DNA of 64,000 nt, from contig NZ_KB235948.1 of NCBI RefSeq assembly GCF_000332335.1, forward strand, positions 4,286,977-4,350,976, written 5' to 3'. Below the pieces are notes generated by a model. It was not told where the DNA came from. It ran no database searches and saw only the letters and a list, made by a program, of their open reading frames with translations. This DNA is from Oscillatoria sp. PCC 10802 (lineage in GTDB: Bacteria; Cyanobacteriota; Cyanobacteriia; Cyanobacteriales; Oscillatoriaceae). The translations under genes and the position numbers were made by a program. Shown piece by piece: positions 153 to 28,857 of the stretch (positions within the stretch are counted from its first letter, which is position 1; each line of letters begins with the position of its first letter).

Positions 153-2108
<1,956 letters not shown>

Positions 2109-2301
2109 ACTATCTACCTTAGCTGATATATAAAGGCTACCTTTTTTTGTCTTTGCTTAACGGAATCAAACCGGAAAATTGATTTTTCTTCACTTTCTAT
2201 TAGCGACCGCGAGTGTCTCAGCTATTCACGGGGAATTCCCCTGAGTTGAATAGCTTGCCTGCTTCCCCGTTATAGCGGTTTTCATCCGAGGTGAGGTACT
2301 G

Positions 2302-2334
2302 AGAAACCCGGTTTCTTAAAGAAACCGGGTTTCT
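2302..2334 (-). terminator. Palindromic hairpin AGAAACCCGGTTTCTT-AA-GAAACCGGGTTTCT, probable intrinsic terminator
   Basis: Perfect inverted repeat immediately downstream of the minus-strand cupin-like gene. It belongs to a dispersed hairpin family seen about 12 times in the window. Confidence 0.45.
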
Positions 2335-2371
2335 GGCATGTGTTTCATCCAACTGAAAACCGTTATATCCG

Positions 2372-2755
2372 CTATCTCCCCTCTCCAATCCCCTGCCGGC
2401 AAGAATCCCCCGGCTTCGATGGCCACCTGACCGTCAGGACGGTAGAGTCCAGCTCGGCAGCCCACGAATGGGGCACTCCGGGACACCAAAGAGCGTAATC
2501 CCCCGGGCGAGACAGCAGCACTTCTCCTTCGGGGAAGTGAATGCGAAATCGCCCTTCTATGAGGATAGAAAGTGTGGTCGCTTCCAAGTTGGTCGCCCAC
2601 TCCGATCTGCTCTCTCCAGCTTGATGAGCGCCCCATTTCACTTCCACAGCGGAGGTTGAGCGGGGGTCCCCGGTCGGGGATATAAAGTGACCGATGAACC
2701 AACCTCTCGCACCCTGAGCTTCTAGCGCGTTGGCAAAAACTACTTTAGACTCCAT
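2372..2755 (-). CDS. Cupin-fold small protein (hypothetical)
   Basis: 127 aa with two cupin-like motifs (GAHQAGESRSEW..E and GDYALWCPGVPHSW). The sibling ORF 2316..2702 in another frame is rejected. Confidence 0.45.
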   Translation of the reverse strand: MESKVVFANALEAQGARGWFIGHFISPTGDPRSTSAVEVKWGAHQAGESRSEWATNLEATTLSILIEGRFRIHFPEGEVLLSRPGDYALWCPGVPHSWAAELDSTVLTVRWPSKPGDSCRQGIGEGR

Positions 2756-2901
2756 TTGTTATTTCTGATAAACTCTCGTTACTTTCAGCAGTGCGGTATG
2801 CAAAACGCCCGCAAAAATGCGGGCTTACAAATATATTTGAGCGCAGGGAGAAAAGCAAAAACCGCCGCAATAAAAGCTCAATAAAATGCTTGCATTCAGA
2901 T

Positions 2902-3066
2902 TATAGCAGTATGCACTTAGGTTAGAAGATTAGACCTTCAGGGGGGGCGTCCCGCCTGCCCTACGTCTATATAGCAGTAAGCATTGAGGAAACCTACATT
3001 CCGGCCTACCTTGCTCCAGAGCTCCCGAAGCTTCTATTTTTCTAACCAATATGACTGTTGCTATAA
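2902..3066. repeat. MITE-like dispersed repeat, family A, complete ~165 bp copy
   Basis: Ends are TATAGCAGTATGCACTTAGGTTAGAA ... TTCTAACCAATATGACTGTTGCTATA. Internal perfect hairpin GTAGGGCAGGCGGGACGCCCCCCC. Near-identical copy at 29724..29886. Confidence 0.8.
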
Positions 3067-3280
3067 GCCTAAATTTCGTTGAGCCAGCCCAAAAGTTTGT
3101 TGTGAGATTACTTGACCGGTGATCCCCAGAGCCGGTCGAGCAATCTCCGAAGCCGGCTGTCTTTTGGAACGATGGCGATACCCCCTCCAGCGGAGCCACT
3201 TCAAAGCGCGGTCTTTACAGACTTGCGATCTAGCAATGGCAAGGGGTTCGGTTAACTCCTCAAATTAACAGCCGGTCCGC

Positions 3281-3490
3281 TCAGTGACTGAGAATGGGGG
3301 TTAATTGCTGCAGTTTGTTTCCCAGCCAATTATAGCCCTTCGCTACGCACTTTGGACAGAGTTCCCCGTAGCTGTCACCCCGCTCGTTGCAGACAATCAC
3401 TCTCGCTTTCCTCATCTGAAACTGCTCCTGGCAGAGCAAGCATGTTTCTTGATTGAAGCTGCCGTCGCACTCAATCTGGAATTGCATCAT
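3281..3490 (-). CDS. Small zinc-ribbon-like protein (two CxxC pairs), hypothetical
   Basis: 69 aa with CLLC..CPKC spacing typical of a zinc ribbon. No homolog recognisable by eye. Confidence 0.35.
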   Translation of the reverse strand: MMQFQIECDGSFNQETCLLCQEQFQMRKARVIVCNERGDSYGELCPKCVAKGYNWLGNKLQQLTPILSH

Positions 3491-4446
3491 ATATTCTTCT
3501 CCTTATTCCAAATGGTGATTCTACAGATTTCAGTACAGTGCCTGAAGTTACGCTAAAAAGCCTGATTTTACCCAAGTGGGGGCTAGCACACAAACGAGAA
3601 GAAGGGAGCTTGTTGAACTCAGGTTCTATAAACTTTTCCGGACTGCCGGTAAAACGCAGCCCCGATGTTTACAGCCAGGAGCAACTTTCCATTTCCGCCT
3701 CAGCAGAATGGATGGGCAGTTCTATCCCTTTCAGTTCCATCCTTGACCGCAAGCGAGAAAGAACTGCGGGTTTATAAAGCACGTCTCCTGTCGCATAGAT
3801 GAGATTTCGGAAGGGTTTTGAGCAATTTGGTATCCTTCAGGAAGGAGCTCTGCCTTTGCCGGTCACAGGAAGTGTTGGAAGTGAGCGGGGTGCGAGCGCC
3901 GGTGCGGATCTAGCGCAATCCAAAGCGCCTTAATTAGTTTAAGTCAGCCGTTCGCAATCCAAGTAGCCAATCATTTCAATTTCCTATCTTTTACAGGCTA
4001 GTTTATCACTGGTTTTTTCTATATCCTTCTACCTTGGGGCATGATTCTGTGTGAAATAAGTTTGTGATATTTAATACAAAGATACCCGAAAAGCCGTCGG
4101 TTGCGGTGATGGAGTGCCGGTGGGGTAAGCTATTTATACCTTTACTCTTCCTGAAGGCGTAAACCCCGAGGTTGTTGTCTCCTACCATTGGTCTGTGCGG
4201 TGTTATCTCTGTTACAGAGCTAACAAAAATCCCTGGCCGGCAGGTGGAGACAAATCGCAGCACCTTCCTCTCCGCCGGTTTCCAATACCTGATTTGAGCA
4301 CTGCCGCACCGGCCTTGTTTCTAGTGCGGTGCGCAGCGCTGCCGGTGCGAACGGACTCTGCTTGCATATCAGCCGGCGGGCAAGCAATTTTAACAGCTGT
4401 TCCAGAGGCGAGCTGGAGAATTCTTAGCTGAGGTCAATGGCCCGCA

Positions 4447-17101: not shown

Positions 17102-19636
17102 TCAAGTCCAAAGCGCCCCACCCATTAACTTTTGGTAGTGCCGCTCCAGTTCTGCCTTCATCTGCGGCCAGCTGTTCAGGGTTGCGTCCCCCTCCATCAC
17201 CTTCTCAGCGGCATCCCTAGCCAGGATCAAAACCTCCTGATCGTCCACTAAACTGGCCAGCATAAAATCAGGCAAGCCCGACTGGCGAGTGCCGAGCACC
17301 TCACCGGGCCCGCGCAGGCGCATGTCCATCTCGGCAATAAAAAAGCCATCTTGGGACTGCGCCATCACATTGAGCCGGTGGCGGGCGTCAGCTGACGCCC
17401 TGGGACTGGCCAGCAGCAAGCAGTAGGACTTGTCAGCGCCGCGACCGACGCGCCCCCGCAGCTGGTGCAGCTGGGACAGCCCGAATCTCTCCGCATTTTC
17501 AATGAGCATGACTGTAGCGTTGGGCACATCCACACCCACTTCCACCACGGTAGTTGCCACGAGAATTTGAGTCTTGCCAGCGCGGAATTTGCCAATAGCC
17601 GCCTCTTTATCAGCGGAAGACAGGCGTCCGTGGAGCAGCCCCACCTGGAATTCCGGGAAAACCACCTCCTGCAGGCGCTGGTACTCCTCAATGGCAGATT
17701 TCAAATCCAGCTTTTCCGATTCTTCCACCAGGGGAAGCACCACATAAACTTGGCGACCGCTCACCACTTCCCGGCGGATAAGATCGTAGGCGTGGGTGCG
17801 CTCTTGACCGGAAAGCACCGCTGTTTGAATCGGTTTCCTTCCAGGGGGCAACTCGTCAATTTGACTGACATCCAAATCGCCGTGCAGCGTCAGCGCCAGG
17901 GTTCGCGGGATGGGAGTGGCGGTCATGGTCAGGACGTGAGGCACCCCGTCAACGCCTTTTTGCTGCAATTTCGCCCGCTGCTCGACGCCAAACCGGTGCT
18001 GCTCGTCGATGACGATTAATCCCAGTTTGTGGAAGCTAACGGTTTCTTGAATCAGGGCGTGAGTGCCGACGAGCACGGGCAGCTCTCCCGTTTGCAGTCC
18101 GGCGTGGATTTGCCGGCGCTTCGAGGCTTTGGTCGAGCCGGTGAGCAGCTCCACCGGCAGGTGTAGCAAATTTAACCAAGACACCAACTTTTTGTAGTGC
18201 TGCTCGGCGAGCACCTCAGTGGGAGCCATCAGCGCCGCCTGGTAGCCAGATTGAATCGCCGCCAGCATCGCCACCACCGCCACCACCGTCTTGCCGGCAC
18301 CCACATCCCCCTGCACGAGCCGGTTCATCGGTTCCGGCTTTTGCAAGTCACTGAGGATTTCGTTAACCACCCGCTGCTGGGCATTCGTGAGCTTAAACGG
18401 CAGCAGCTTGTAGAACCTGTCAATCAGCTTGCCTTTAGAGCGAAGCTTGGTGCTATTCTGGGCAGAGCGCTGGCTGTAGCGGCGGCTGAGCAGTCCGAGC
18501 TGGAGGTAGAAAAACTCGTTAAAGACCAGCCGGCGTCTCGCCTCTTGCAGCAGCTCGCGATCGGGTGGGAAGTGGATATTGGCGATCGCCTCGTGCAAGT
18601 TCATCAGCCCGTAGCGATCGCGCACTTCCGCCGGCAGGGAGTCTTTGATCTGGCTGGCGGAGGGCAGCGCTGCGGAAACCGCCTTTCTCACCACCTCCGC
18701 CCCCACCCCTTCCGTCAGGGAGTAAACCGGCAGCAACCGCCCCACGGCCATCGATTCCATAGCGCCGTCGGCGTCATCAAGGACTTCCAATTGTGGGTCG
18801 TCCAGGGTTGTGCCGTATTTATTTTGTTTCACCAAGCCAGACGCAGCCACCGTAGCGCCGATCGGGTACAGGCGTTTTTGCTGCTCTTGCCAAGCCCGGG
18901 AGCTAAAGCGACCGGCAAAAAAGCGGCTTATTTTAAGCTGACCCGTGCGGTCTGTCAAGACCACCTCTAGAATGCTTAATTTCTTATTGCGCGGGCTAGT
19001 AAAGCAGTTGCATCGCTTCACCGTACCCACAACCGTCACTGTCTCTCCGGGCTCCAACTCCTGAATACTAACCTGGCGGGCGTAGTCAACATGGTCGCGG
19101 GGGTAGTAGAAAAGCAGGTCGCGCACACTCAACAGCCCCAATTTGGCCAGTCGCTCCGCATTTCTTGGCCCCACACCGTCCAGGCGAATCAGGGGTTGGT
19201 CGAGAGTGACCGTCGGAGTGCAGCCTACCGGACTCAGGGGGGCAGTTCGGGGCTGTTTCCCATTGGAGGTTGGGGATGGGGGGTTGCTGCCGCTCTCCTC
19301 CGCTTTCGCGATCGGCGGCTCCTTCTTTGCCTCAGAGCGCTCGCAAACCCGCTGCATCTGGAGGATGAACATGCGAGCGTTTGCGATCAGGCTCTGTCGC
19401 TCATCGAGATTCAGCTCGGGATAATTGCCAAATTGCGCCCCCATTTGCTGCCACCTGCGCCGGTAATACGGCGACAGCCCGGAGGGCGGTCGGCTAAAGC
19501 TCTCCCCAAGAAACTCACTAAAGCGCTTTTCTTTGCCTACTAAATCATTAAAGCCGCGTTCGGCTTCAATAGACAGCGCTTTTTGCAATCGGACCCAATC
19601 TGGTAATTCTGTTTCCACAGCCTTTCTCCTACACAA
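17102..19636 (-). CDS. recG: ATP-dependent DNA helicase RecG
   Basis: 844 aa with the helicase motifs I-VI (DVGAGKT, DEQHRFG, TATPIPRT, the QLRGRVGRG arginine finger region). Preceded by a long cyanobacterial-type N-terminal extension and wedge domain. Confidence 0.9.
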   Translation of the reverse strand: MCRRKAVETELPDWVRLQKALSIEAERGFNDLVGKEKRFSEFLGESFSRPPSGLSPYYRRRWQQMGAQFGNYPELNLDERQSLIANARMFILQMQRVCERSEAKKEPPIAKAEESGSNPPSPTSNGKQPRTAPLSPVGCTPTVTLDQPLIRLDGVGPRNAERLAKLGLLSVRDLLFYYPRDHVDYARQVSIQELEPGETVTVVGTVKRCNCFTSPRNKKLSILEVVLTDRTGQLKISRFFAGRFSSRAWQEQQKRLYPIGATVAASGLVKQNKYGTTLDDPQLEVLDDADGAMESMAVGRLLPVYSLTEGVGAEVVRKAVSAALPSASQIKDSLPAEVRDRYGLMNLHEAIANIHFPPDRELLQEARRRLVFNEFFYLQLGLLSRRYSQRSAQNSTKLRSKGKLIDRFYKLLPFKLTNAQQRVVNEILSDLQKPEPMNRLVQGDVGAGKTVVAVVAMLAAIQSGYQAALMAPTEVLAEQHYKKLVSWLNLLHLPVELLTGSTKASKRRQIHAGLQTGELPVLVGTHALIQETVSFHKLGLIVIDEQHRFGVEQRAKLQQKGVDGVPHVLTMTATPIPRTLALTLHGDLDVSQIDELPPGRKPIQTAVLSGQERTHAYDLIRREVVSGRQVYVVLPLVEESEKLDLKSAIEEYQRLQEVVFPEFQVGLLHGRLSSADKEAAIGKFRAGKTQILVATTVVEVGVDVPNATVMLIENAERFGLSQLHQLRGRVGRGADKSYCLLLASPRASADARHRLNVMAQSQDGFFIAEMDMRLRGPGEVLGTRQSGLPDFMLASLVDDQEVLILARDAAEKVMEGDATLNSWPQMKAELERHYQKLMGGALWT

Positions 19637-20633: not shown

Positions 20634-21293
20634 TTATTTGCTTCCCATCTGTGCGGCCACTTCTTCGGCAAAGTTGCTCTCTTGTTTTTCAATCCCTTCG
20701 CCCAGCACAAACCGCACGAAACGGCGCACCTGGATGTTTTCACCCAGCTGGGCGATGGCTTGCTTCACCAACTCCTCAACCGTGATATTTTGATCGCGAA
20801 TGAAGGGCTGGTCCATCAGAGACAGCTCTTTCAACCGCTTCTCAATCCGCCCTTGCACGATCTTTTCCCGGATGTTCACCGGCTTGCTAGCCAGGTCATC
20901 CCGCCCCATTTCAATCTCCTTTTCCTTTTCGATCATTTCAGCTGGGATGTCTGCAACCTTCACGTACTCCACATTCGGGCAAGCTGCAACTTGCATGGCG
21001 ATATTCCGCACCAGAGCTTGGAACTCTTTATTGCGGGCAACAAAATCGGTCTGGCAGTTCACTTCCACCAGCACGCCAATTCGCCCGCCGGTGTGAATGT
21101 AGCTATCCACCAACCCTTCTGCTGTCACGCGCCCCGCTTTTTTCTCCGCCGAGGTGATCCCCTTTTGCCGCAGCCATTCCATAGCTTTGGTCATGTCACC
21201 GTCGTTTTCCGCGAGTGCCTTTTTGCAGTCCATCATCCCCGCGCCGGTTTGGTCGCGCAGTTCTTTGACAGCTTTTGCAGATATTTCCGCCAT
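20634..21293 (-). CDS. tsf: Translation elongation factor Ts
   Basis: 219 aa. [45 protein letters not shown] (UBA-like N-terminus) followed by the EF-Ts dimerisation core. Confidence 0.92.
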
Positions 21294-21428: not shown

Positions 21429-22229
21429 CTAATCCTCAGATTCCTCATCGTCGCCATACGAGTCGCTGTCATCCATCTCCTCGTAGTCGAACTCCTCTTC
21501 TGCGGCTTCGTAATCTTCGTAGTCTTCTTCAGCTACTGCATCGAGCTGACCGTGACGCCCTTCATAAATGGCATCAGCCAGTTTCCCCAATATTAGCTTA
21601 ATCGAGCGGATGGCATCGTCATTCGCCGGAATCGGGATATCCACCAAATTGGGGTCGCAATTAGTGTCCAGCAGCGACACGATTGGAATATCTAGCTTCT
21701 GGCACTCTTGCACCGCGTTGTACTCCCGCCGCTGGTCTACGATGACCACTATATCGGGCACTTTCCGCATGCTTTTAATGCCGCCTAAATATTTTTGCAG
21801 TTTGCTCATCTCGCGGCGCAGCATTGAGCCTTCTTTTTTGGGCCGCAGCTCCAGAGCGCCGGTTTCCTCCATACGCTCCAGTTCTTTCAACCGATCCACC
21901 CGGCTTTTGATCGTGGCCCAGTTTGTCAGCATTCCGCCCAACCAGCGCTGGTTGACGTAGTACGCACCGCACCGCAACGCTTCTTGCGCGACAATGCCAG
22001 CGGCTTGGCGCTTGGTGCCGACAAACAGAAACTTCTTGCCCCCCTCCGAGGCCGTCCGCATGTACTCATACGCCTCCTCCATCAGCTGGGCGGTCTGCAC
22101 CAAGTCGATGATGTGAACGCCGTTGCGTTCTGTGAAGATGTACCGGGACATCTTGGGATTCCACCGGCGGGTCTGGTGACCGAAGTGTACCCCTGACTCC
22201 AACAGCTGAGCCAATGAAACAACTGGCAT
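21429..22229 (-). CDS. rpsB: 30S ribosomal protein S2 with acidic C-terminal tail
   Basis: 266 aa. [25 protein letters not shown] and [13 protein letters not shown] motifs. The rpsB-tsf pair is in conserved order. Confidence 0.92.
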
Positions 22230-22386
22230 ATCTTTCCTTCTCCTGATTCGGGTTCCCCTTCCATCCAGGCGTATTTCCCTGCGGAAACACCCGAACCCCT
22301 GGATGTGTGAGTTTAGACAACTTTACTAGAGTAGCACAAGTGCGCCCCCTGCAAGCAGAAAATTTTCCCTCGCCGGGGCAAGCCCT

Positions 22387-22920
22387 TCAGCAACCCAGGC
22401 GGCGCTCGCTCTCCGCAATCCCACCGGCTCTCAGCCATTCTATCGGTTCCTCCTCTGGTCTATCTGGGTTGACCCACACAATATCTCGGATTTCCGGCAC
22501 CAGTCCAGCAGCTTGGCCAAAAAGTCTCCTCACTCTCTCATCCAGAGAGATTACCGTCTTATCTGTTGCCAGTGCCGCCTCAATCAGGTGGAAATCCTTA
22601 AACATCGCTTCCCTCTCGCTGTCGAGCCCGGCAGTGCCTTCAATTTGCTTCCATAACTCTTCATTGGTTTGAATATCAGCTCGATATTCCAGCTTTTTCT
22701 TTGCGACCATCTGGCGTCGCCATGTACGAGCAAAGTTTGATTCGTGCTTAGTCCACTCATCTCTGATATCTGGTGTCATAACCACTCTGTGACATATATC
22801 CAGGACAGCTAGGAGAAAATCGCGGCAGTGTTTCGCTGTTGGGTGGGTTGCTTCCTCCCCCCCGGCAGCATTCGCAACAGAAGCATCAATCACTAGAAGT
22901 TGGGAAACTTTTTTGGCCAT
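22387..22920 (-). CDS. Hypothetical protein, PIN-like (predicted), partner of upstream ATPase
   Basis: 177 aa. LLVIDASVANAAGGEE (acidic residue after the beta1 strand) and FKDFHLIEAALATDKTVISLDERV (the D..T.D motif of PIN folds). Its start lies 2 nt after the stop of the ATPase gene, so translational coupling is likely. Confidence 0.45.
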   Translation of the reverse strand: MAKKVSQLLVIDASVANAAGGEEATHPTAKHCRDFLLAVLDICHRVVMTPDIRDEWTKHESNFARTWRRQMVAKKKLEYRADIQTNEELWKQIEGTAGLDSEREAMFKDFHLIEAALATDKTVISLDERVRRLFGQAAGLVPEIRDIVWVNPDRPEEEPIEWLRAGGIAESERRLGC

Positions 22921-22921
22921 A

Positions 22922-24310
22922 TCAGCCTTTTAACAGGCGAGCCTCCGCTGCGTCCAAATAGCGGCTTTCTAGTTTCAAAGACACATCCCCAAAGTCTTCT
23001 GGCCAGTCTCCAAACGCTCCCGCCTCATCCAGATCCGCGCTGCTGACTTCTGTAACACCGTCCTCTCGCCGTGTGAACCAGTGAAGTTTTACTGCGTCTG
23101 GCAACAGCTTCCCCTCTGCGACTAGAGATTGAACCGCCAGCAGCAGCACTTCGCTGTGGGTTTCCACAACGACTCGCACACCCCGAGAAGCCGCCTCGGC
23201 TAATACCTCTGCCAGAGCAGCTTGAGCCCGAGGATGCAGGTGAATTTCTGGCTGTTCTATGTAAACTAATTGGCCTGGTTCCGCTACCAGAAGGGCAACA
23301 AGCACCGGCAAAACCTGAGACACTCCGAACCCAACGTCAGCCACACTCACCATATCTATAACTCGACCTCGACGAGGCAAACGACCGACCTGCAGTTCAA
23401 CTTGCGTGTCATCAACCTGTCGGGCTCCCACTTTACAAGTCAGTCCCAGAGTTTCCAGAAAACGGCCCAAGTCTTGCAGACGTTTATCTTTAATTTTTTG
23501 CCATTGATTGACCACACTAGCAACGTAATTTTCAAACGTTCCCTGAAAGTCGCTGCCAACCGCTGTGATTTTGTAAGTTCGTTCTGGATTCCCTCGCAGT
23601 CCGGGAACGTGGATTACCTTTCTTATATAATTTTCAAATAACTCAGCTGGGCTTTTAATCAGCCGGAAAAATGACTGCTGCGCTAACTTCTCTCCCCCCG
23701 CACTTAATACGACTTCCAAAAAACATCTGTTCCTCCTCACACACCAATTCAATAAAATTTTTTGGCTTTCTGAAAAACTCACTTCAACTTCTTTCCTTTT
23801 AAATAAAGCTTCTTTTAAAGGATGGAAAGCTCCCGCCAACTTTTCTGCAGCCTGCCTAATATCCTCTTCCGCCATATTATACGAAATTGGAATTCGTTCG
23901 TCTTCATTCCTATAGGTCATTTCAGCCATTTCAATTCCTGTTTCGGGGTGCTTCTTAAAAAGCGTGCTGAGAAACTGACAATTGCTGATTTCAATCTTAA
24001 CACTAAAGCTATCACTGCTGTTCTTCTCAGACAGCTGAGAAAATAACTGTCCCGCTGAAGTAAACCTCACATTGGGCCCGGACAGCAGCAGCGGGCCAGG
24101 ATCGTAAGTTGCTTCCAGCGTTTGCTTGAGTAACAGCAGCGGCTGCATGATGCTGGATTTGCCGGAACTGTTGGCACCGGCAAGAATTGTCAGCGGACGG
24201 ATTTCCACACTGCACTCTTCGTACAGAGACTTGTACCCGCGTACTGAAATGCCGGCGATTCCCGGAGGGGAATCTTGCCTCTGACTTTTGGAATAGGTAG
24301 CTTGACTCAT
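22922..24310 (-). CDS. ABC/SMC-type AAA ATPase (AAA_21/DUF3696-like)
   Basis: 462 aa. Walker A ILAGANSSGKSSIMQ. Walker B/D-loop QLVYIEQPEIHLHP. H-loop VVETHSEVLL. No transmembrane or transporter partner nearby, as is typical of defence-island ATPases. Confidence 0.75.
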   Translation of the reverse strand: MSQATYSKSQRQDSPPGIAGISVRGYKSLYEECSVEIRPLTILAGANSSGKSSIMQPLLLLKQTLEATYDPGPLLLSGPNVRFTSAGQLFSQLSEKNSSDSFSVKIEISNCQFLSTLFKKHPETGIEMAEMTYRNEDERIPISYNMAEEDIRQAAEKLAGAFHPLKEALFKRKEVEVSFSESQKILLNWCVRRNRCFLEVVLSAGGEKLAQQSFFRLIKSPAELFENYIRKVIHVPGLRGNPERTYKITAVGSDFQGTFENYVASVVNQWQKIKDKRLQDLGRFLETLGLTCKVGARQVDDTQVELQVGRLPRRGRVIDMVSVADVGFGVSQVLPVLVALLVAEPGQLVYIEQPEIHLHPRAQAALAEVLAEAASRGVRVVVETHSEVLLLAVQSLVAEGKLLPDAVKLHWFTRREDGVTEVSSADLDEAGAFGDWPEDFGDVSLKLESRYLDAAEARLLKG

Positions 24311-24334
24311 GCTCTTAGCTCCGGCTCATCCCTC

Positions 24335-25303
24335 TCAGCATATCAATCTTTCCCCCTGCAGTTCAGCATAAGCTGAGTAGACTCCTCTCACATTATACCA
24401 GTTCAGGAAAATTCGCGCAATCTCCAGAGCTAACTGAGATTTCCCCCTGTCAATCAGCCACTGTAATAGAGGAGCCACTGTCCGCTCGTTCAGTCTTCCC
24501 CCCAGGGAGAGCGCCCCCCAAAGCAGCCGGTGCAGCCAAGTCATTTGAATCATCATTCGCACCTCCCAGGTGGGATGCTTTTGGTAGAACAGCACCCCCA
24601 TGCGACCGCGCTGAATTTCTTTATCAATCAGCGCCGGCAGCTGCTCCAAGGAAAAGGGGGGATGCCAGTGATAGCCGGCAGCGGCTGGGCATTTAATGAG
24701 TTTCAGCCCCAGCTGCTTTAGCCGCACCCCCAGTTCCAGGTCCTCCCAGCCGTAGAGTTGAAACCTCGTGTCAAACAGGCCGGCTTTTTCCAACCATTTA
24801 CGGGGGATAGCGACATTCCCTGTAGCGAAATACGCCGCAGAAAAATCGGTTATCTTGTAGCGCTCCGCCGTGGGGTTATCGAAGTTGGCGGTGTTGATAA
24901 CCCGACCGTATGTAAACACCCGATCCCCTCCCGACTCCTGAAATCCCCGCAGCAGCGCCTCAGCGTGCGCCGCGAGAAAATTCTCCGTGACGACTAGATC
25001 GCTGTCTATAAAAATAATAGTGTCACCGGCAGCCTTTTGTATTCCTAGATTCCGGGCAGCAGCTGGCCCACTGTGGTCTTGACAGAACCGGCGCAGGTGG
25101 GGAAACTCAGCGGAGTGTTCTTCCAGCCACTCGATCGTACCATCCGTCGAGCCATCATCCACCAGCACCACCTCGTAGCCGGTGACGGGGCTCTCACCCC
25201 CCAGCTGCTGGCGTTCCAGCGCGCGCAGGCACTTTTTCAGAATTGCCCTGCGATTGTAAGTTGGAATCACAACACTGAAAAACACTTCTTCCCCCCGCAG
25301 CAA
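24335..25303 (-). CDS. Glycosyltransferase family 2
   Basis: 322 aa. FSVVIPTYNRRAILKKCLRALERQ...YEVVLVDDGSTDGT, plus DxD (FIDSDL) motifs. Confidence 0.85.
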   Translation of the reverse strand: MLRGEEVFFSVVIPTYNRRAILKKCLRALERQQLGGESPVTGYEVVLVDDGSTDGTIEWLEEHSAEFPHLRRFCQDHSGPAAARNLGIQKAAGDTIIFIDSDLVVTENFLAAHAEALLRGFQESGGDRVFTYGRVINTANFDNPTAERYKITDFSAAYFATGNVAIPRKWLEKAGLFDTRFQLYGWEDLELGVRLKQLGLKLIKCPAAAGYHWHPPFSLEQLPALIDKEIQRGRMGVLFYQKHPTWEVRMMIQMTWLHRLLWGALSLGGRLNERTVAPLLQWLIDRGKSQLALEIARIFLNWYNVRGVYSAYAELQGERLIC

Positions 25304-26780
25304 ACCTTCTGAGCGGACGCACTTGACACCTGACCGCTAAATCGAACATTTACTTGAATACTCTTGAGATATCTAATCTTTGCGCTTCTCATTGTGAGCC
25401 CTCTAGCTAAACTCCCCACACACGCCTCCTTCGGGGGGTGCGCACACCTTCGCCTCACTTGACTGTTGGGCGCAGCGGAGACTTTCCGCCGCTTTTCCGT
25501 ACCGGGTGGGGGAATTGGGAGAGTGAGGTTTGCCATAAACTGACGGTCTGTTGCGATAGCCGGCAGCGCCGGGATTTCGGTAAATTTCAGGTTATTTCGC
25601 TCCACCGGCTTGATTCCCTGTTCCCACTCCCGATTGCAACCAACCCCCCCCTTGACAGTGAAGTTATAAAGGCAGCTCTTAATGATGTAGCGCTCAGTTT
25701 TCTTCAAGCTGTCTTTCCCCGGCGCTCTGTTGCAGTTTTTAACCTGCCGTTTCAGAAGCTCAGCACTCCCTCTAACTCTCTGCTTTTCATGGACTGACTT
25801 CCCTTTCCCCCTCCGTGAGGTGTGCCGCTGTTCTTTGAACACCTTTAACACGCTGTCATTGCCCCTCAATTCTGCCCCCTTACTTCCAGCACCCCTGCCA
25901 AAATTATCCCGCCTAAAATCGAGTGTTCTTATTAGGTCGTGCAGATTAACCGCACTCATAAACCCATGCCTCATGCCCCATGCCCCATGCCCGACATCAG
26001 AAATATTATGGATATACAGCCTGACGCGATCTAACGCCCTGTTTGTGCCTGACTGCGTTGGGTGAGCTGATAGCTCACAGACTTCTGCGATTTCTGCTTT
26101 CCTGTCCTTGCGGTGGAAAACCCCCTTTCTTGGGCGCAGGGCGCAGGTGCTGGGGAATGCCAAACACCGGCAATAGCAACCCTTTGAGTCAATCAATAAG
26201 TTTCGCTTATCGCCTGGAGTCTGGGAGTTTTCCTTTTTAAATAAATGAGCCCTGTCTGTGGGGCCTTGCGGCATGTAAGGGTTTTTCGCTATTCTTGGCA
26301 TCGGGGGAGTGGGAGTCGGCGGGGATGAATCGCCCCTGGTGGGTGTAATGCTGTCGAACATTGTAGAATACAAGACTGTATGGGTTTTTGCAGCTAAGCC
26401 TCTCAAGCGGTTTTTGGGAGTGGGAACCGGGGAATTCTGGAATCCATTGGCGTCATTATACCACAGACTTGGGCATTCCTCTGTCACCGGCAGATATTGT
26501 GACAGTATTCTGCCGGATTTTGCCGCTAGCGACCTGCTGGCCCACCGGCGAGAGCGAGGGAATGTCGGGACAGGTGCGGCCAGCGCAGATTTCTCCGCCT
26601 GAAACATCTATATTTGGCTTTGCCCTCTCTCCCTCTATCTCTTAACCGCACCGCTCAGATATTCAAAATTATTTTAGCGGAAGTGCTGTTCGGGTGGGGG
26701 CGGGTTGCACAGGGCGGATTGCGCTGCCCAGAGTGGGGACATGCGGCTCGCCCGCCCCGGAGTGCCGGCGAGCCCGAACC

Positions 26781-27398
26781 TCACAGCTTTTTGGGGGCGG
26801 CACGCCCCAGCAAGCGAATCAGGGCAACGCCGGTGAGAGCGGAGACAGCAAACCACGTCACCGCCAAACCCACTAACTCGCCGAGGAACAGGCGCGTGGA
26901 CAGGCGAACAGCCCAGCCCACAGCCCAGCCCAGGGGCAGCCCCAACGCCCAGCTGGCGGCACTGGCAAAGATCCAAGTCCCATCTCTGGCGACTTGCTTT
27001 TGGATGGTTAGCCACTGCGCCAGTCCAGTCAGAGCCCCCACCAGCGCTCCGTCGAAAACCCCATTAATCAACCGGAATCCGATATTTTCGCTTGTGGGTG
27101 CCATCCAGCCCAGGGCACCCACGCTGCTCGCCCCGATCAAGCCCCAGCTGAGGGCAGATGCCAATATCCACCGGCTCGCTTGGGGGAAGAGCTGTCTGAG
27201 GACAGCCCACTGCGCCAAGCCAATCGCCGCACCGCCGGCTAACCCTTGCACCACCCCCACATAAGGTCTGACACCGATTTCAACAAACAGCAGGCTCACC
27301 AAAAAGCCGGCTTGGGTGAGAGACACCCACTGCAACCAGAAAGCCCGTTCCTTGCTGGCGAGTTTGACAGGGGCATAGTAATAGAACGTTGCTGACAT
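26781..27398 (-). CDS. Hypothetical polytopic membrane protein
   Basis: Real start taken as the internal ATG at 27398 (MSATFYYYAPVKLASKERAFWLQW). About 205 aa with 5-6 hydrophobic helices rich in G/A/L/W. The long N-terminal extension in the ORF track overlaps the GHL10 gene and is rejected. Confidence 0.5.
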   Translation of the reverse strand: MSATFYYYAPVKLASKERAFWLQWVSLTQAGFLVSLLFVEIGVRPYVGVVQGLAGGAAIGLAQWAVLRQLFPQASRWILASALSWGLIGASSVGALGWMAPTSENIGFRLINGVFDGALVGALTGLAQWLTIQKQVARDGTWIFASAASWALGLPLGWAVGWAVRLSTRLFLGELVGLAVTWFAVSALTGVALIRLLGRAAPKKL

Positions 27399-27464
27399 TG
27401 GCGTTAAAAAAGTTCCGGGTAAAAGTGACGCAATCGAATCTGAGAGCTGCGCGGCCAGAAACCG

Positions 27465-27493
27465 GGTTTCTTTGAGAAACCCGGTTTCTCGGC
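27465..27493 (-). terminator. AGAAACCGGGTTTCTTTGAGAAACCCGGTTTCT hairpin, terminator of GHL10 gene
   Basis: Inverted repeat 12 nt downstream of the stop of the 27505..28857 gene. Confidence 0.5.
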
Positions 27494-27504
27494 TTCTATA
27501 AATT

Positions 27505-28857
27505 CTATCCCGCTGGAGTTGGCTTTTGCAAAAGTTTCGGTCGTGTGGCGGGCTCAGAAAAAATGTCCTGGAATGCCGCGCGGCGCTCCGGTGGCGACTC
27601 GGGTGCGATATAGCCCCACAAGCTCTCCCAGTAAAAAAAAGAGACGCCATTAAATCCGCGCTCGCGAGCCACCTGCACTTGCTTCTCGATTTGCTCCATA
27701 GCGACAGGACGCCCCCAGGTTCCGGTTGATATCCCCACGCCCACGGGAATCTTGCTGCGAGCCGCCGCCAGAGCCGGTTTTTGCAATTCCTCCACAAAAG
27801 TTGTCATGTCACCTCGATATACCTGCACCACCAATTCCTCTACCAAACCGCGCTGCACCCAAGTCGGCCAGTCTTGCAGATAGAGTTTGTATGAATAATC
27901 TTGCGAATTGGGAGACAGGGATATAATGCAGTTGGGGCTGACTGTTTTGACAGCCTGGTAGACCTTTTGCATGAAATCCGTAATCTTGTCGGCTCGCCAG
28001 CGCATCCACTCGGCGTCTCTGGGATTGTCAGGAGGGTTTTTGCCTGCGTGCTCTTGCTGGTAAAGCCGGAGCGTGAAAGGATCGTAACCGAATTCCACCG
28101 GCATGGCAAAGCGATCGTCAATTTGAATGCCAGCGACTCCATATTTACTGACAACTTCCACGAGCAAGTCGAGCATGAACTTCTGCACTTCTGGGTGGAG
28201 GGGGTTGAGCCAGACTTGGCTGATCTCCATCTGCTTGAGGATAAACTGCCTGACGTTTTCCCACACCGGCTTGGCGGTTGAATTGCCAGAGTCGATGCCG
28301 TTCTGTTCGTCGGCAATCTCCTTGAGAATCTGGCTGCTGTTGCGGCGAAAAGTCACCCACTCCGGGTGCCGGCGAACCAGTTCTGAGTTCGCCGGTGCCA
28401 TGAAGCCATACTCAAACCACGGGATAACGTCCATCTGGTAGCGGTATCCCTGTTTGATTATCTCCGCCAGGGAATCCTGCCCCAGCCGCACCAGCCCCAG
28501 CAGTGGCTCTCGATCTCGCCCCGTCACCTGTTTCGCCACCTGGCTCGGGTAAAAGGTCTGCCCCCGGTTCCACACGACCGGATATACTGTATTAAAGTTT
28601 AGTTGCGAGAGCTGCCGCATCGCTCGGTTCACCCCCCACGGGGCAAATAGCACTCCGCTAGTCACATTGGTCAGCCACACGCCCCGCACCTCTGTTCTAG
28701 CCGCCGGCGCGGCGGGAGAGCGGACTCCCACCGGACTCCCAACCCCTGAGATCCCATTGGGGTTGCTTTCGCTAAGTTGCCACAGCGCCGCCAGCAGCGC
28801 CAGTCCCAGGCATAGCAGGTACACCAGCCATCTCTTGTCAAATTTCTTCTTGCCCAT
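27505..28857 (-). CDS. Glycoside hydrolase-like family 10 (GHL10/DUF187) lipoprotein
   Basis: 450 aa. Signal peptide/lipobox region LVYLLCLGLALLAA. RGVWLTNVTSGVLF...NFNTVYPVVWNRGQTFYPS...VIPWFEYGFM TIM-barrel signature of the YngK/GHL10 family. Confidence 0.8.
   Translation of the reverse strand: MGKKKFDKRWLVYLLCLGLALLAALWQLSESNPNGISGVGSPVGVRSPAAPAARTEVRGVWLTNVTSGVLFAPWGVNRAMRQLSQLNFNTVYPVVWNRGQTFYPSQVAKQVTGRDREPLLGLVRLGQDSLAEIIKQGYRYQMDVIPWFEYGFMAPANSELVRRHPEWVTFRRNSSQILKEIADEQNGIDSGNSTAKPVWENVRQFILKQMEISQVWLNPLHPEVQKFMLDLLVEVVSKYGVAGIQIDDRFAMPVEFGYDPFTLRLYQQEHAGKNPPDNPRDAEWMRWRADKITDFMQKVYQAVKTVSPNCIISLSPNSQDYSYKLYLQDWPTWVQRGLVEELVVQVYRGDMTTFVEELQKPALAAARSKIPVGVGISTGTWGRPVAMEQIEKQVQVARERGFNGVSFFYWESLWGYIAPESPPERRAAFQDIFSEPATRPKLLQKPTPAG

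Follow-up and report, generated by a model that had tools for sequence, protein, structure and literature searches.

An ABC ATPase and PIN-fold gene pair with a hypervariable Insert-1 cassette beside rpsB in Oscillatoria sp. PCC 10802: a probable phage-defence or toxin switch

Introduction

What does a gene pair encoding an ATPase and a small PIN-like protein do between a glycosyltransferase gene and the genes rpsB and tsf? We address this question for a stretch of 64,000 nucleotides from Oscillatoria sp. PCC 10802 (RefSeq assembly GCF_000332335.1, contig NZ_KB235948.1, positions 4,286,977 to 4,350,976 of the forward strand), called the window in the following, in which an initial annotation made from the letters alone had marked the pair as a candidate defence or toxin cassette. 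We find a strictly coupled pair of an ATP-binding cassette (ABC) ATPase and a PIN-fold protein. Both genes are under purifying selection and keep their active-site residues, the ATPase carries a hypervariable cassette, and the pair is present in some and absent from other related genomes at the same chromosomal site. It is a self-contained module of ABC ATPase plus nuclease effector that combines the architecture of HEC-03 with an ATPase of the Menshen NsnB type. From these properties we infer a function in defence or as a toxin. Most probably it is a phage-defence or toxin switch that falls within a known kind of system and does not represent a new one.

A strictly coupled gene pair

The two genes follow each other on the minus strand:

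22922..24310, minus strand: ATPase, 462 amino acids, ATG start, stop codon included
22387..22920, minus strand: stand-alone PIN-fold protein, 177 amino acids, ATG start, fold assigned by structure prediction

Both open reading frames (ORFs) lie where the initial annotation had placed them. The gap of 2 nt given there needs correction, as the junction reads ...GGC TGA t ATG GCC and leaves a single nucleotide. This 1-nt gap suggests translational coupling of the ATPase and PIN genes. Both ORFs are confirmed as real genes. Their products are each 100% identical to annotated Kamptonema formosum proteins, and homologues in the database number 505 for the 177-residue protein (word-indexed search) and more than 7,600 for the ATPase.

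A profile scan of one genome per species (185,579 species) returned 142 relatives, from which 80 loci were fetched; 3 further loci bring the set to 83. In every one of the 83, the PIN gene is immediately preceded by the end of a gene for an ATPase homologue of 46–94% identity. The pair occurs in Cyanobacteria, filamentous and other, and in Poribacteria, Acidobacteriota, Planctomycetota and KSB1, hence at least five phyla. Clustering of all flanking ORFs from 80 loci gave no third gene that is shared beyond lineage-specific synteny. The two-gene cassette proposed initially is thus borne out by strict adjacency and by the lack of a conserved third partner.

A stand-alone ATPase of the defence-system kind

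In Pfam, the ATPase matches AAA_21 (4.9e-26) and AAA_15 (1.7e-22), while DUF3696 stays below threshold (E 0.0021, 18.7 bits vs a cut-off of 22). The top PADLOC match is Menshen NsnB (PDLC03878, 1.4e-57), aligning residues 20–443 with profile positions 4–334 of 345, followed by the HEC-03 ATPase model (PDLC04148, 2.8e-42) and PDC-M55A (1e-37). Matches to the AriA, GajA and Old models are much weaker and in most cases shorter. The predicted structure contains a beta-rich Insert-1 and no coiled coil. Its top structural match is an SMC head, and similarity to SMC and Rad50 is confined to the head domain. Neither Pfam nor the predicted structure contains a nuclease domain in this protein. These data support an assignment as a stand-alone ATPase of ABC/SMC-head type and of the kind found in defence systems. 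This part of the initial annotation stands; the kin it named (OLD, Gabija, PARIS and Septu) are replaced by Menshen NsnB and the HEC-03 ATPase as closest in PADLOC. It had also raised a grouping with the housekeeping proteins RecF, RecN and SbcC as the outcome that would speak against defence. The ATPase does not group with them: NCBIfam recF reaches an E-value of 0.18, and all other NCBIfam matches lie far under their cut-offs.

The motifs of the ATPase map to the following positions:

24152..24178, minus strand: Walker A GANSSGKSS, residues 45–53, canonical, invariant in the alignments of 55 sequences (A2) and of 191 sequences
23315..23341, minus strand: signature-motif equivalent ADVGFGVSQ, residues 324–332, GxG instead of SGG, from the family alignments
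23246..23269, minus strand: variant Walker B LVYIEQPE, residues 348–355, E-Q instead of D-E, followed by HLHP
23153..23164, minus strand: H-loop ETHS, residues 383–386, with T384, H385 and S386 invariant in the 55-sequence alignment A2
22925..23101, minus strand: C-terminal DUF3696-like tail, residues ~404–462, with predicted strands at 407–426 and a long helix at 438–461

Walker A, Walker B and H-loop are all found as annotated, with the qualification that Walker B is non-canonical. The stretch EQPExHLHP is invariant throughout the family in both alignments. By analogy, we propose the C-terminal tail as a candidate docking site for the PIN protein.

A PIN-fold protein with an intact acidic set

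For the 177-residue protein, no meaningful match came from searching Pfam, NCBIfam, PADLOC, PHROGs or PDB sequences, whether with the single sequence or with a profile, so that the PIN assignment rests on the predicted structure and on motif positions. Structure prediction yields a VapC-like PIN fold, with Nob1, Utp24 and HARP among the fold matches, and no additional effector domain. The earlier guess of a PIN-like protein is therefore unsupported by sequence search and confirmed by structure prediction, and the PADLOC check recommended with it recognises the ATPase (NsnB and HEC-03 models) and leaves its partner unmatched.

22540..22887, minus strand: span holding the PIN acidic residues, D12 (22885–22887), E55 (22756–22758), D109 (22594–22596) and D127 (22540–22542)

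Conservation was determined in an alignment of 151 sequences, the window protein and 150 representatives of clusters at 50% identity. D12 and E55 are each kept in 149 of these 151 sequences, D109 in all 151 and D127 in 142, with E in 8 more; position 49 is T, as in the window, or S in 141. On the predicted fold, the four acidic residues sit where strand 1 ends, within the helix that follows strand 2, within the long helix that precedes strand 4 and directly behind strand 4. This topology suggests that D12, E55, D109 and D127 cluster as an intact PIN D-E-D-D catalytic set. The protein also carries a conserved C-terminal extension of ~45 residues (W149-x-N-P, W162-L, G166-A) that has no counterpart in VapC. 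An exhaustive search places 2,267 clusters at 50% identity in the family, 841 of them with E <1e-30, and no Pfam model covers it. We predict the protein to be an active Mg-dependent ribonuclease (RNase) and the effector of the pair.

A hypervariable Insert-1 cassette

The most informative new observation of this analysis is a hypervariable segment within the ATPase gene:

23630..24040, minus strand: Insert-1 cassette, residues ~91–227, beta-rich and low in guanine plus cytosine (GC), with a fall to 0.41, delimited by alignments, GC content, synonymous divergence (dS) and predicted strands at 101–142 and 175–204

Compared with the two closest genomes, Oscillatoria princeps and Oscillatoria Prado101, the DNA is 90–100% identical over 8.4 kb outside ~23650–24030. 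Inside this interval, nucleotide identity to the same two genomes goes down to 32–52% and GC content to 0.32–0.47. Across 191 family members, column entropy amounts to 2.4–3.4 bits for residues ~91–227 and is mostly below 1 bit for residues 21–90 and 228–460. Core and insert are decoupled. Pairs of sequences with at least 90% core identity can show as little as 18–47% identity in the insert, and for pairs at 80–85% core identity the insert identity lies anywhere from 10 to 87%. In the predicted structure, the hypervariable segment forms a beta-rich domain that follows helix 1 and precedes strand 2, which makes it the ABC Insert-1.

The ATPase cores of the window and Oscillatoria princeps are 96% identical. 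Between the two, Insert-1 has a dS of 0.86 and a nonsynonymous divergence (dN) of 0.41, whereas dS is 0.10–0.17 for the flanking genes, 0.195 for the PIN gene and 0.13–0.25 for the ATPase core. Positive selection on an otherwise co-inherited gene cannot produce this excess of synonymous change in the insert. It implies replacement of the allele or cassette by recombination, or a very old balanced polymorphism. The ratio dN/dS (omega) is ~0.2 on the ATPase core and 0.26 on the PIN gene, which is purifying selection on both genes. These ratios derive from the comparison with Oscillatoria princeps only; Oscillatoria Prado101 was discarded because an internal stop in the gene of this metagenome-assembled genome (MAG) broke the codon alignment. 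The same Prado101 MAG gene (locus L005, 3017–4396) shows several odd changes at otherwise invariant positions, e.g. RCFL to RWFL, in addition to the internal stop; either the assembly is wrong here or the copy is decaying.

Which trigger such ATPases respond to has been proposed to be determined by variation in Insert-1 and Insert-2 (Payne et al. 2024, bioRxiv 10.1101/2024.01.29.577857). Along these lines, we propose Insert-1 as a sensor or specificity domain.

Insertion site, age and genomic context

The neighbourhood of the pair is made up of the following features:

24335..25303, minus strand: GT2 glycosyltransferase
24311..24334, minus strand: spacer of 24 nt from the GT2 stop to the ATPase start
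22230..22386, minus strand: spacer between the PIN gene and rpsB with a conserved rpsB leader, downstream boundary of the inserted pair
21429..22229, minus strand: rpsB
20634..21293, minus strand: tsf
17102..19636, minus strand: recG

Read along the minus strand, the order is GT2, ATPase, 177-residue ORF, rpsB, tsf, a hypothetical protein of 274 residues and recG, with the flanks as the initial annotation had given them. A promoter and terminator scan found no signal over shuffled background and no promoter-like site in 24311..24334, which makes co-transcription with GT2 likely.

The same order from GT2 to recG, pair included, occurs in Oscillatoria princeps, Oscillatoria Prado101, Symplocastrum and Coleofasciculaceae, and likewise in Tolypothrix and Calothrix NIES strains, Anabaena subtropica, Anabaena WFMT and Anabaena cylindrica. 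Coleofasciculus keeps the GT2 side alone and two other loci keep the rpsB side alone. In Microcoleus FACHB-672, Chroococcidiopsis TS-821 and Nostoc linckia FACHB-104 the junction is empty, and GT2 leads straight to rpsB, tsf, the hypothetical gene and recG. These empty junctions in related cyanobacteria show that the pair is accessory; it is present in some relatives and absent from others, and not universally conserved at this position. The insertion is old because the same site is common to Oscillatoriales, Coleofasciculaceae and Nostocales. The initial reading of the pair as an insertion thus holds with a refinement: it is an ancient one, at the same site in several cyanobacterial orders. 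We reject a recent horizontal insertion in the genome of the window on account of this syntenic site and the 90–100% identity of the flanks. At the GT2|rpsB junction of Aerosakkonema (locus L084, 6067–6720) we find an unrelated, Ser/Thr-rich and probably secreted protein of 217 residues. Accessory genes may have landed at this junction repeatedly.

A neighbour-joining tree of the ATPase core follows taxonomy, with groups for Nostocales, Coleofasciculus, Poribacteria, Acidobacteria and Planctomycetes. Poribacteria and a second set of Oscillatoriales each have a conserved site of their own, the latter adjoining an Hsp70-like gene. Inheritance of the pair seems to be largely vertical within lineages, with repeated loss.

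The 5' leader of rpsB (22233–22320, minus strand) contains two stems, CACAUCCAGG...CCUGGAUGG on the outside and GUUUCC...GGAAAU on the inside. Its UUCGGGU is complementary to a downstream ACCCGAA beside the Shine-Dalgarno sequence, and a pseudoknot could form. Six cyanobacterial loci, some with the pair and some without it, conserve the leader; 4 base pairs show compensatory changes, and there is no Rfam match. It is probably a cyanobacterial S2 autoregulatory leader. Since it is kept whether or not the pair is there, the pair sits between the GT2 stop and the rpsB promoter and leader. The window as a whole is without an Rfam match at gathering thresholds, and around the locus there are chance-level matches only.

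Upstream of GT2, ~2.2 kb (25304–27500) contain no convincing gene and no Rfam match. Two ORFs without Pfam match reach into this region, one of 446 residues and odd composition (25267..26607, minus strand) and one of 338 residues (26781..27797, minus strand). The sign of the GC skew flips near 26000, GC content rises to 0.65 at 26750–27250, and the start of the region is not conserved with Oscillatoria princeps. A gene at 27505–28857 on the minus strand encodes an ordinary protein of 450 residues with a GHL10 glycosyl-hydrolase-like domain (1.9e-83).

Comparison with known systems

The closest known system is HEC-03, Hma-embedded candidate 03 from Pseudomonas cichorii ATCC 10857 (WP_025259138.1 and WP_025259137.1; Payne et al. 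2024, bioRxiv 10.1101/2024.01.29.577857). It consists of a DUF3696 ABC ATPase of 461 residues followed by a VapC-like PIN of 157 residues, protects E. coli against phages, needs both genes and is toxic on induction; the two-gene requirement for defence was demonstrated for the Pseudomonas cichorii system only (bioRxiv 10.1101/2024.01.29.577857). Both systems are two-gene operons of the same order and of near-equal sizes (461 and 157 residues in HEC-03, 462 and 177 here) with overlapping or abutting genes. The ATPases are homologous and of the DUF3696 type, and share the EQPEIHLHP Walker B and the GFG signature, and a VapC-like PIN is encoded directly downstream in each case. In BLASTP, our ATPase is 53% identical to WP_025259138.1 over 78 residues (E 5e-22) and 43% identical over 61 residues. 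Motifs common to both are NSSGKSS, DVGFGVSQVLP, EQPEIHLHP (FMEQPEIHLHP in HEC-03) and ESHSE. The two differ in their setting. HEC-03-type pairs lie inside Hma systems or on plasmids and are often followed by a third gene (RNA ligase or HNH), whereas the family of the window is chromosomal, flanked by housekeeping genes, without a third gene and without plasmid or phage copies.

Homologues of the HEC-03-type PIN are found on 12 plasmids; the loci inspected have a DUF3696/AAA ATPase directly upstream and usually a third gene downstream. HEC-03-type plasmid loci of Aeromonas, Azotobacter, Tistrella and Rhodococcus (L089–L093, ~1100–3730 each) are operons of three genes, for a DUF3696 ATPase, a PIN of ~175 residues and an 'RNA ligase family protein'. 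An RNA ligase beside the PIN is consistent with RNA cleavage plus a step of repair or reset. In an Acinetobacter soli plasmid locus (L088) the third gene is an HNH endonuclease.

The second relative is Menshen (NsnABC), which reportedly goes back to Millman et al. in 2022. With it the window's ATPase shares NsnB-like sequence over the full length, the GxG signature, an altered Walker B (EN in NsnB, EQ here), an SMC head as top structural match, a DUF3696 tail (sub-threshold here) and a PIN-like fold in the downstream partner. In NsnB, Walker B departs from DE to EN and the signature from SGG to GxG (Li et al. 2025, PMC12065111). AlphaFold 3 models of Menshen place the PIN-like domain between the two DUF3696 tails of an NsnB dimer, and all major Menshen inPIN families are without PIN catalytic residues (Li et al. 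2025, PMC12065111). Menshen moreover requires NsnA, and NsnC is an inactive PIN-like N-terminal domain fused to a C-terminal toxin (PMC12065111). The pair studied here differs in three respects. There is no NsnA (ParB-DUF262 plus ParBDB) gene upstream, where GT2 ends 24 nt before the ATPase. The PIN stands alone with an intact catalytic set, in contrast to the inactive, toxin-fused adaptor of Menshen. Finally, the variable element is Insert-1 of the ATPase, and not NsnA-N or NsnC as in Menshen.

Other systems are more distant. Unlike PARIS (AriA/AriB), Septu (PtuA/PtuB), Gabija (GajA/GajB) and OLD, the pair has a PIN effector instead of TOPRIM, DUF4435 or HNH, its ATPase is not fused to a nuclease, and ATPase matches are limited to conserved ABC blocks; the 177-residue protein matches none of the PADLOC models for AriB, GajB and PtuB. 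With VapBC it shares a PIN with four conserved acidic residues. It differs from VapBC by the absence of a small DNA-binding VapB upstream, where an ABC ATPase of the 462-residue type stands in 83 of 83 loci, by a PIN without match to Pfam PIN (PF01850) and by the C-terminal extension of ~45 residues.

Discussion

In the reading that we favour, with a probability of about 0.62, the pair is a PIN RNase gated by an ATPase and serves in conflicts with phages or other invaders. By analogy, the ATPase would oligomerise by its ABC heads, and its DUF3696-like tails would keep the PIN RNase inactive. Insert-1, given its variability, would serve to recognise a trigger derived from the invader. The PIN may then be released or activated when the ATPase changes its ATP-binding or hydrolysis state; the E-Q Walker B points to a switch with slow hydrolysis. 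In view of its intact D-E-D-D site and VapC-like fold, the PIN would cut cellular or phage RNA and thereby halt growth or infection.

Several observations weigh against a role in conflict. The context, with apparently vertical inheritance at lineage-specific sites, is atypical for defence genes. The flanking genes are mostly housekeeping genes, namely GT2, rpsB, tsf and recG here and Hsp70-like, EngA and LeuRS genes elsewhere. By tblastn, neither 72,556 plasmids nor 50,697 phage records contain a copy of the PIN gene. When 127 flanking proteins from non-syntenic loci were compared with PADLOC, the matches were only scattered, and nearly every matched family was hit by just one protein: mad2 matched 3 proteins, and one protein each matched a type I methyltransferase, a type II methyltransferase, DpdF-like and PD-T4-6-like. 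Ten large flanking proteins that were checked one by one in PADLOC had no match. With housekeeping flanks, few defence matches and no plasmid or phage copies, the pair lies neither in a defence island nor on mobile elements. The ATPase core is also unusually conserved, with 82% identity between the window's Kamptonema sequence and Tolypothrix, compared to 67% for RecG. As for the likeness to HEC-03, the window's PIN has no match at E <= 1 to any PADLOC model including the HEC-03 partner, so that PADLOC would not call the locus HEC-03. In hhalign, the comparison with the single HEC-03 PIN is not significant (probability 1.9%), and that with a profile of 7 HEC-03-type PIN sequences is only suggestive (probability 27%, P 6.8e-4, N-terminal half only).

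The best surviving alternative, which we regard as unlikely, is a chromosomal toxin-antitoxin or addiction module with no dedicated antiviral role. Here the VapC-like PIN would be the toxin and the ATPase its antitoxin or regulator, kept because loss is harmful or for stress-induced growth arrest. Such a module would agree with the VapC-like fold and intact active site, the tight coupling of the genes and their stable long-term residence at fixed chromosomal sites amid housekeeping genes. HEC-03 is itself toxic when induced, and Pfam's own label for AAA_21 is 'putative AbiEii toxin, Type IV TA system'. However, a VapB-like small DNA-binding antitoxin is missing, the nearest characterised kin are phage-defence systems, and many lineages have lost the pair cleanly and left empty sites. 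A hypervariable, recombining surface domain in an 'antitoxin' is moreover hard to explain without an external, fast-evolving ligand.

Less probable still is a lineage-specific housekeeping factor for RNA processing or ribosome quality control, in which an ATPase-regulated PIN RNase would act on rRNA, tRNA or mRNA and the adjacency to rpsB and tsf would be meaningful. The gene order GT2-ATPase-PIN-rpsB-tsf-recG, common to Oscillatoriales, Coleofasciculaceae and Nostocales, would find an explanation in this way, as would the very high conservation of an ATPase core whose tree follows taxonomy. Other contexts of the pair also contain translation genes, e.g. EngA/Der GTPase and LeuRS, and many PIN proteins, including Nob1, Utp24 and HARP from the fold matches, are RNA-maturation enzymes. 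Yet the spread is patchy, with relatives at 142 places in the genomes of 185,579 species in a pattern-based scan, and the GT2|rpsB junction is empty in close relatives. In most phyla and in many cyanobacteria the pair lies away from rpsB, and rpsB has its own conserved leader downstream of the pair. A hypervariable cassette is also unexpected in such an enzyme.

A decayed, non-functional remnant of a three-gene Menshen that lost NsnA and the NsnC effector domain is very improbable: NsnB is the top PADLOC match of the ATPase, a PIN-like domain starts Menshen NsnC and ~8% of catalogued Menshen systems are cyanobacterial, but the conservation data largely refute it, with the two-gene form in 83 of 83 loci and no conserved NsnA-like neighbour, purifying selection on both genes, a large PIN family of 2,267 clusters at 50% identity, and catalytic residues kept that every major Menshen inPIN family lacks.

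Within the favoured reading of an ATPase-gated PIN RNase, a more far-reaching proposal can be made tentatively. The pair may belong to a large unnamed family in which an NsnB-type ATPase directly controls an active PIN, possibly the ancestral, simpler form behind the inactive-PIN adaptor of Menshen. Recognition would reside in an exchangeable Insert-1, and the module would be kept very long at fixed chromosomal sites, e.g. beside rpsB in filamentous cyanobacteria, with the sensor cassette alone turning over.

Conclusions

The traits that set this pair apart are a hypervariable, putatively recombining candidate sensor cassette on a highly conserved core, a stand-alone PIN predicted to be active, long residence beside rpsB and absence from mobile elements. 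PADLOC models recognise the ATPase half of the pair only. If our reading is true, a widespread and currently uncalled relative of HEC-03 and Menshen joins the immune systems built from ABC ATPase and nuclease. The family would then offer a natural system for infection sensing by such ATPases, in which near-identical cores carry very different Insert-1 cassettes. It also points to a way in which the inactive PIN adaptors of Menshen could have evolved from active PIN effectors. Moreover, it would be an example of an immune-like module that does not travel on mobile elements but passes vertically through its lineages at a housekeeping locus.

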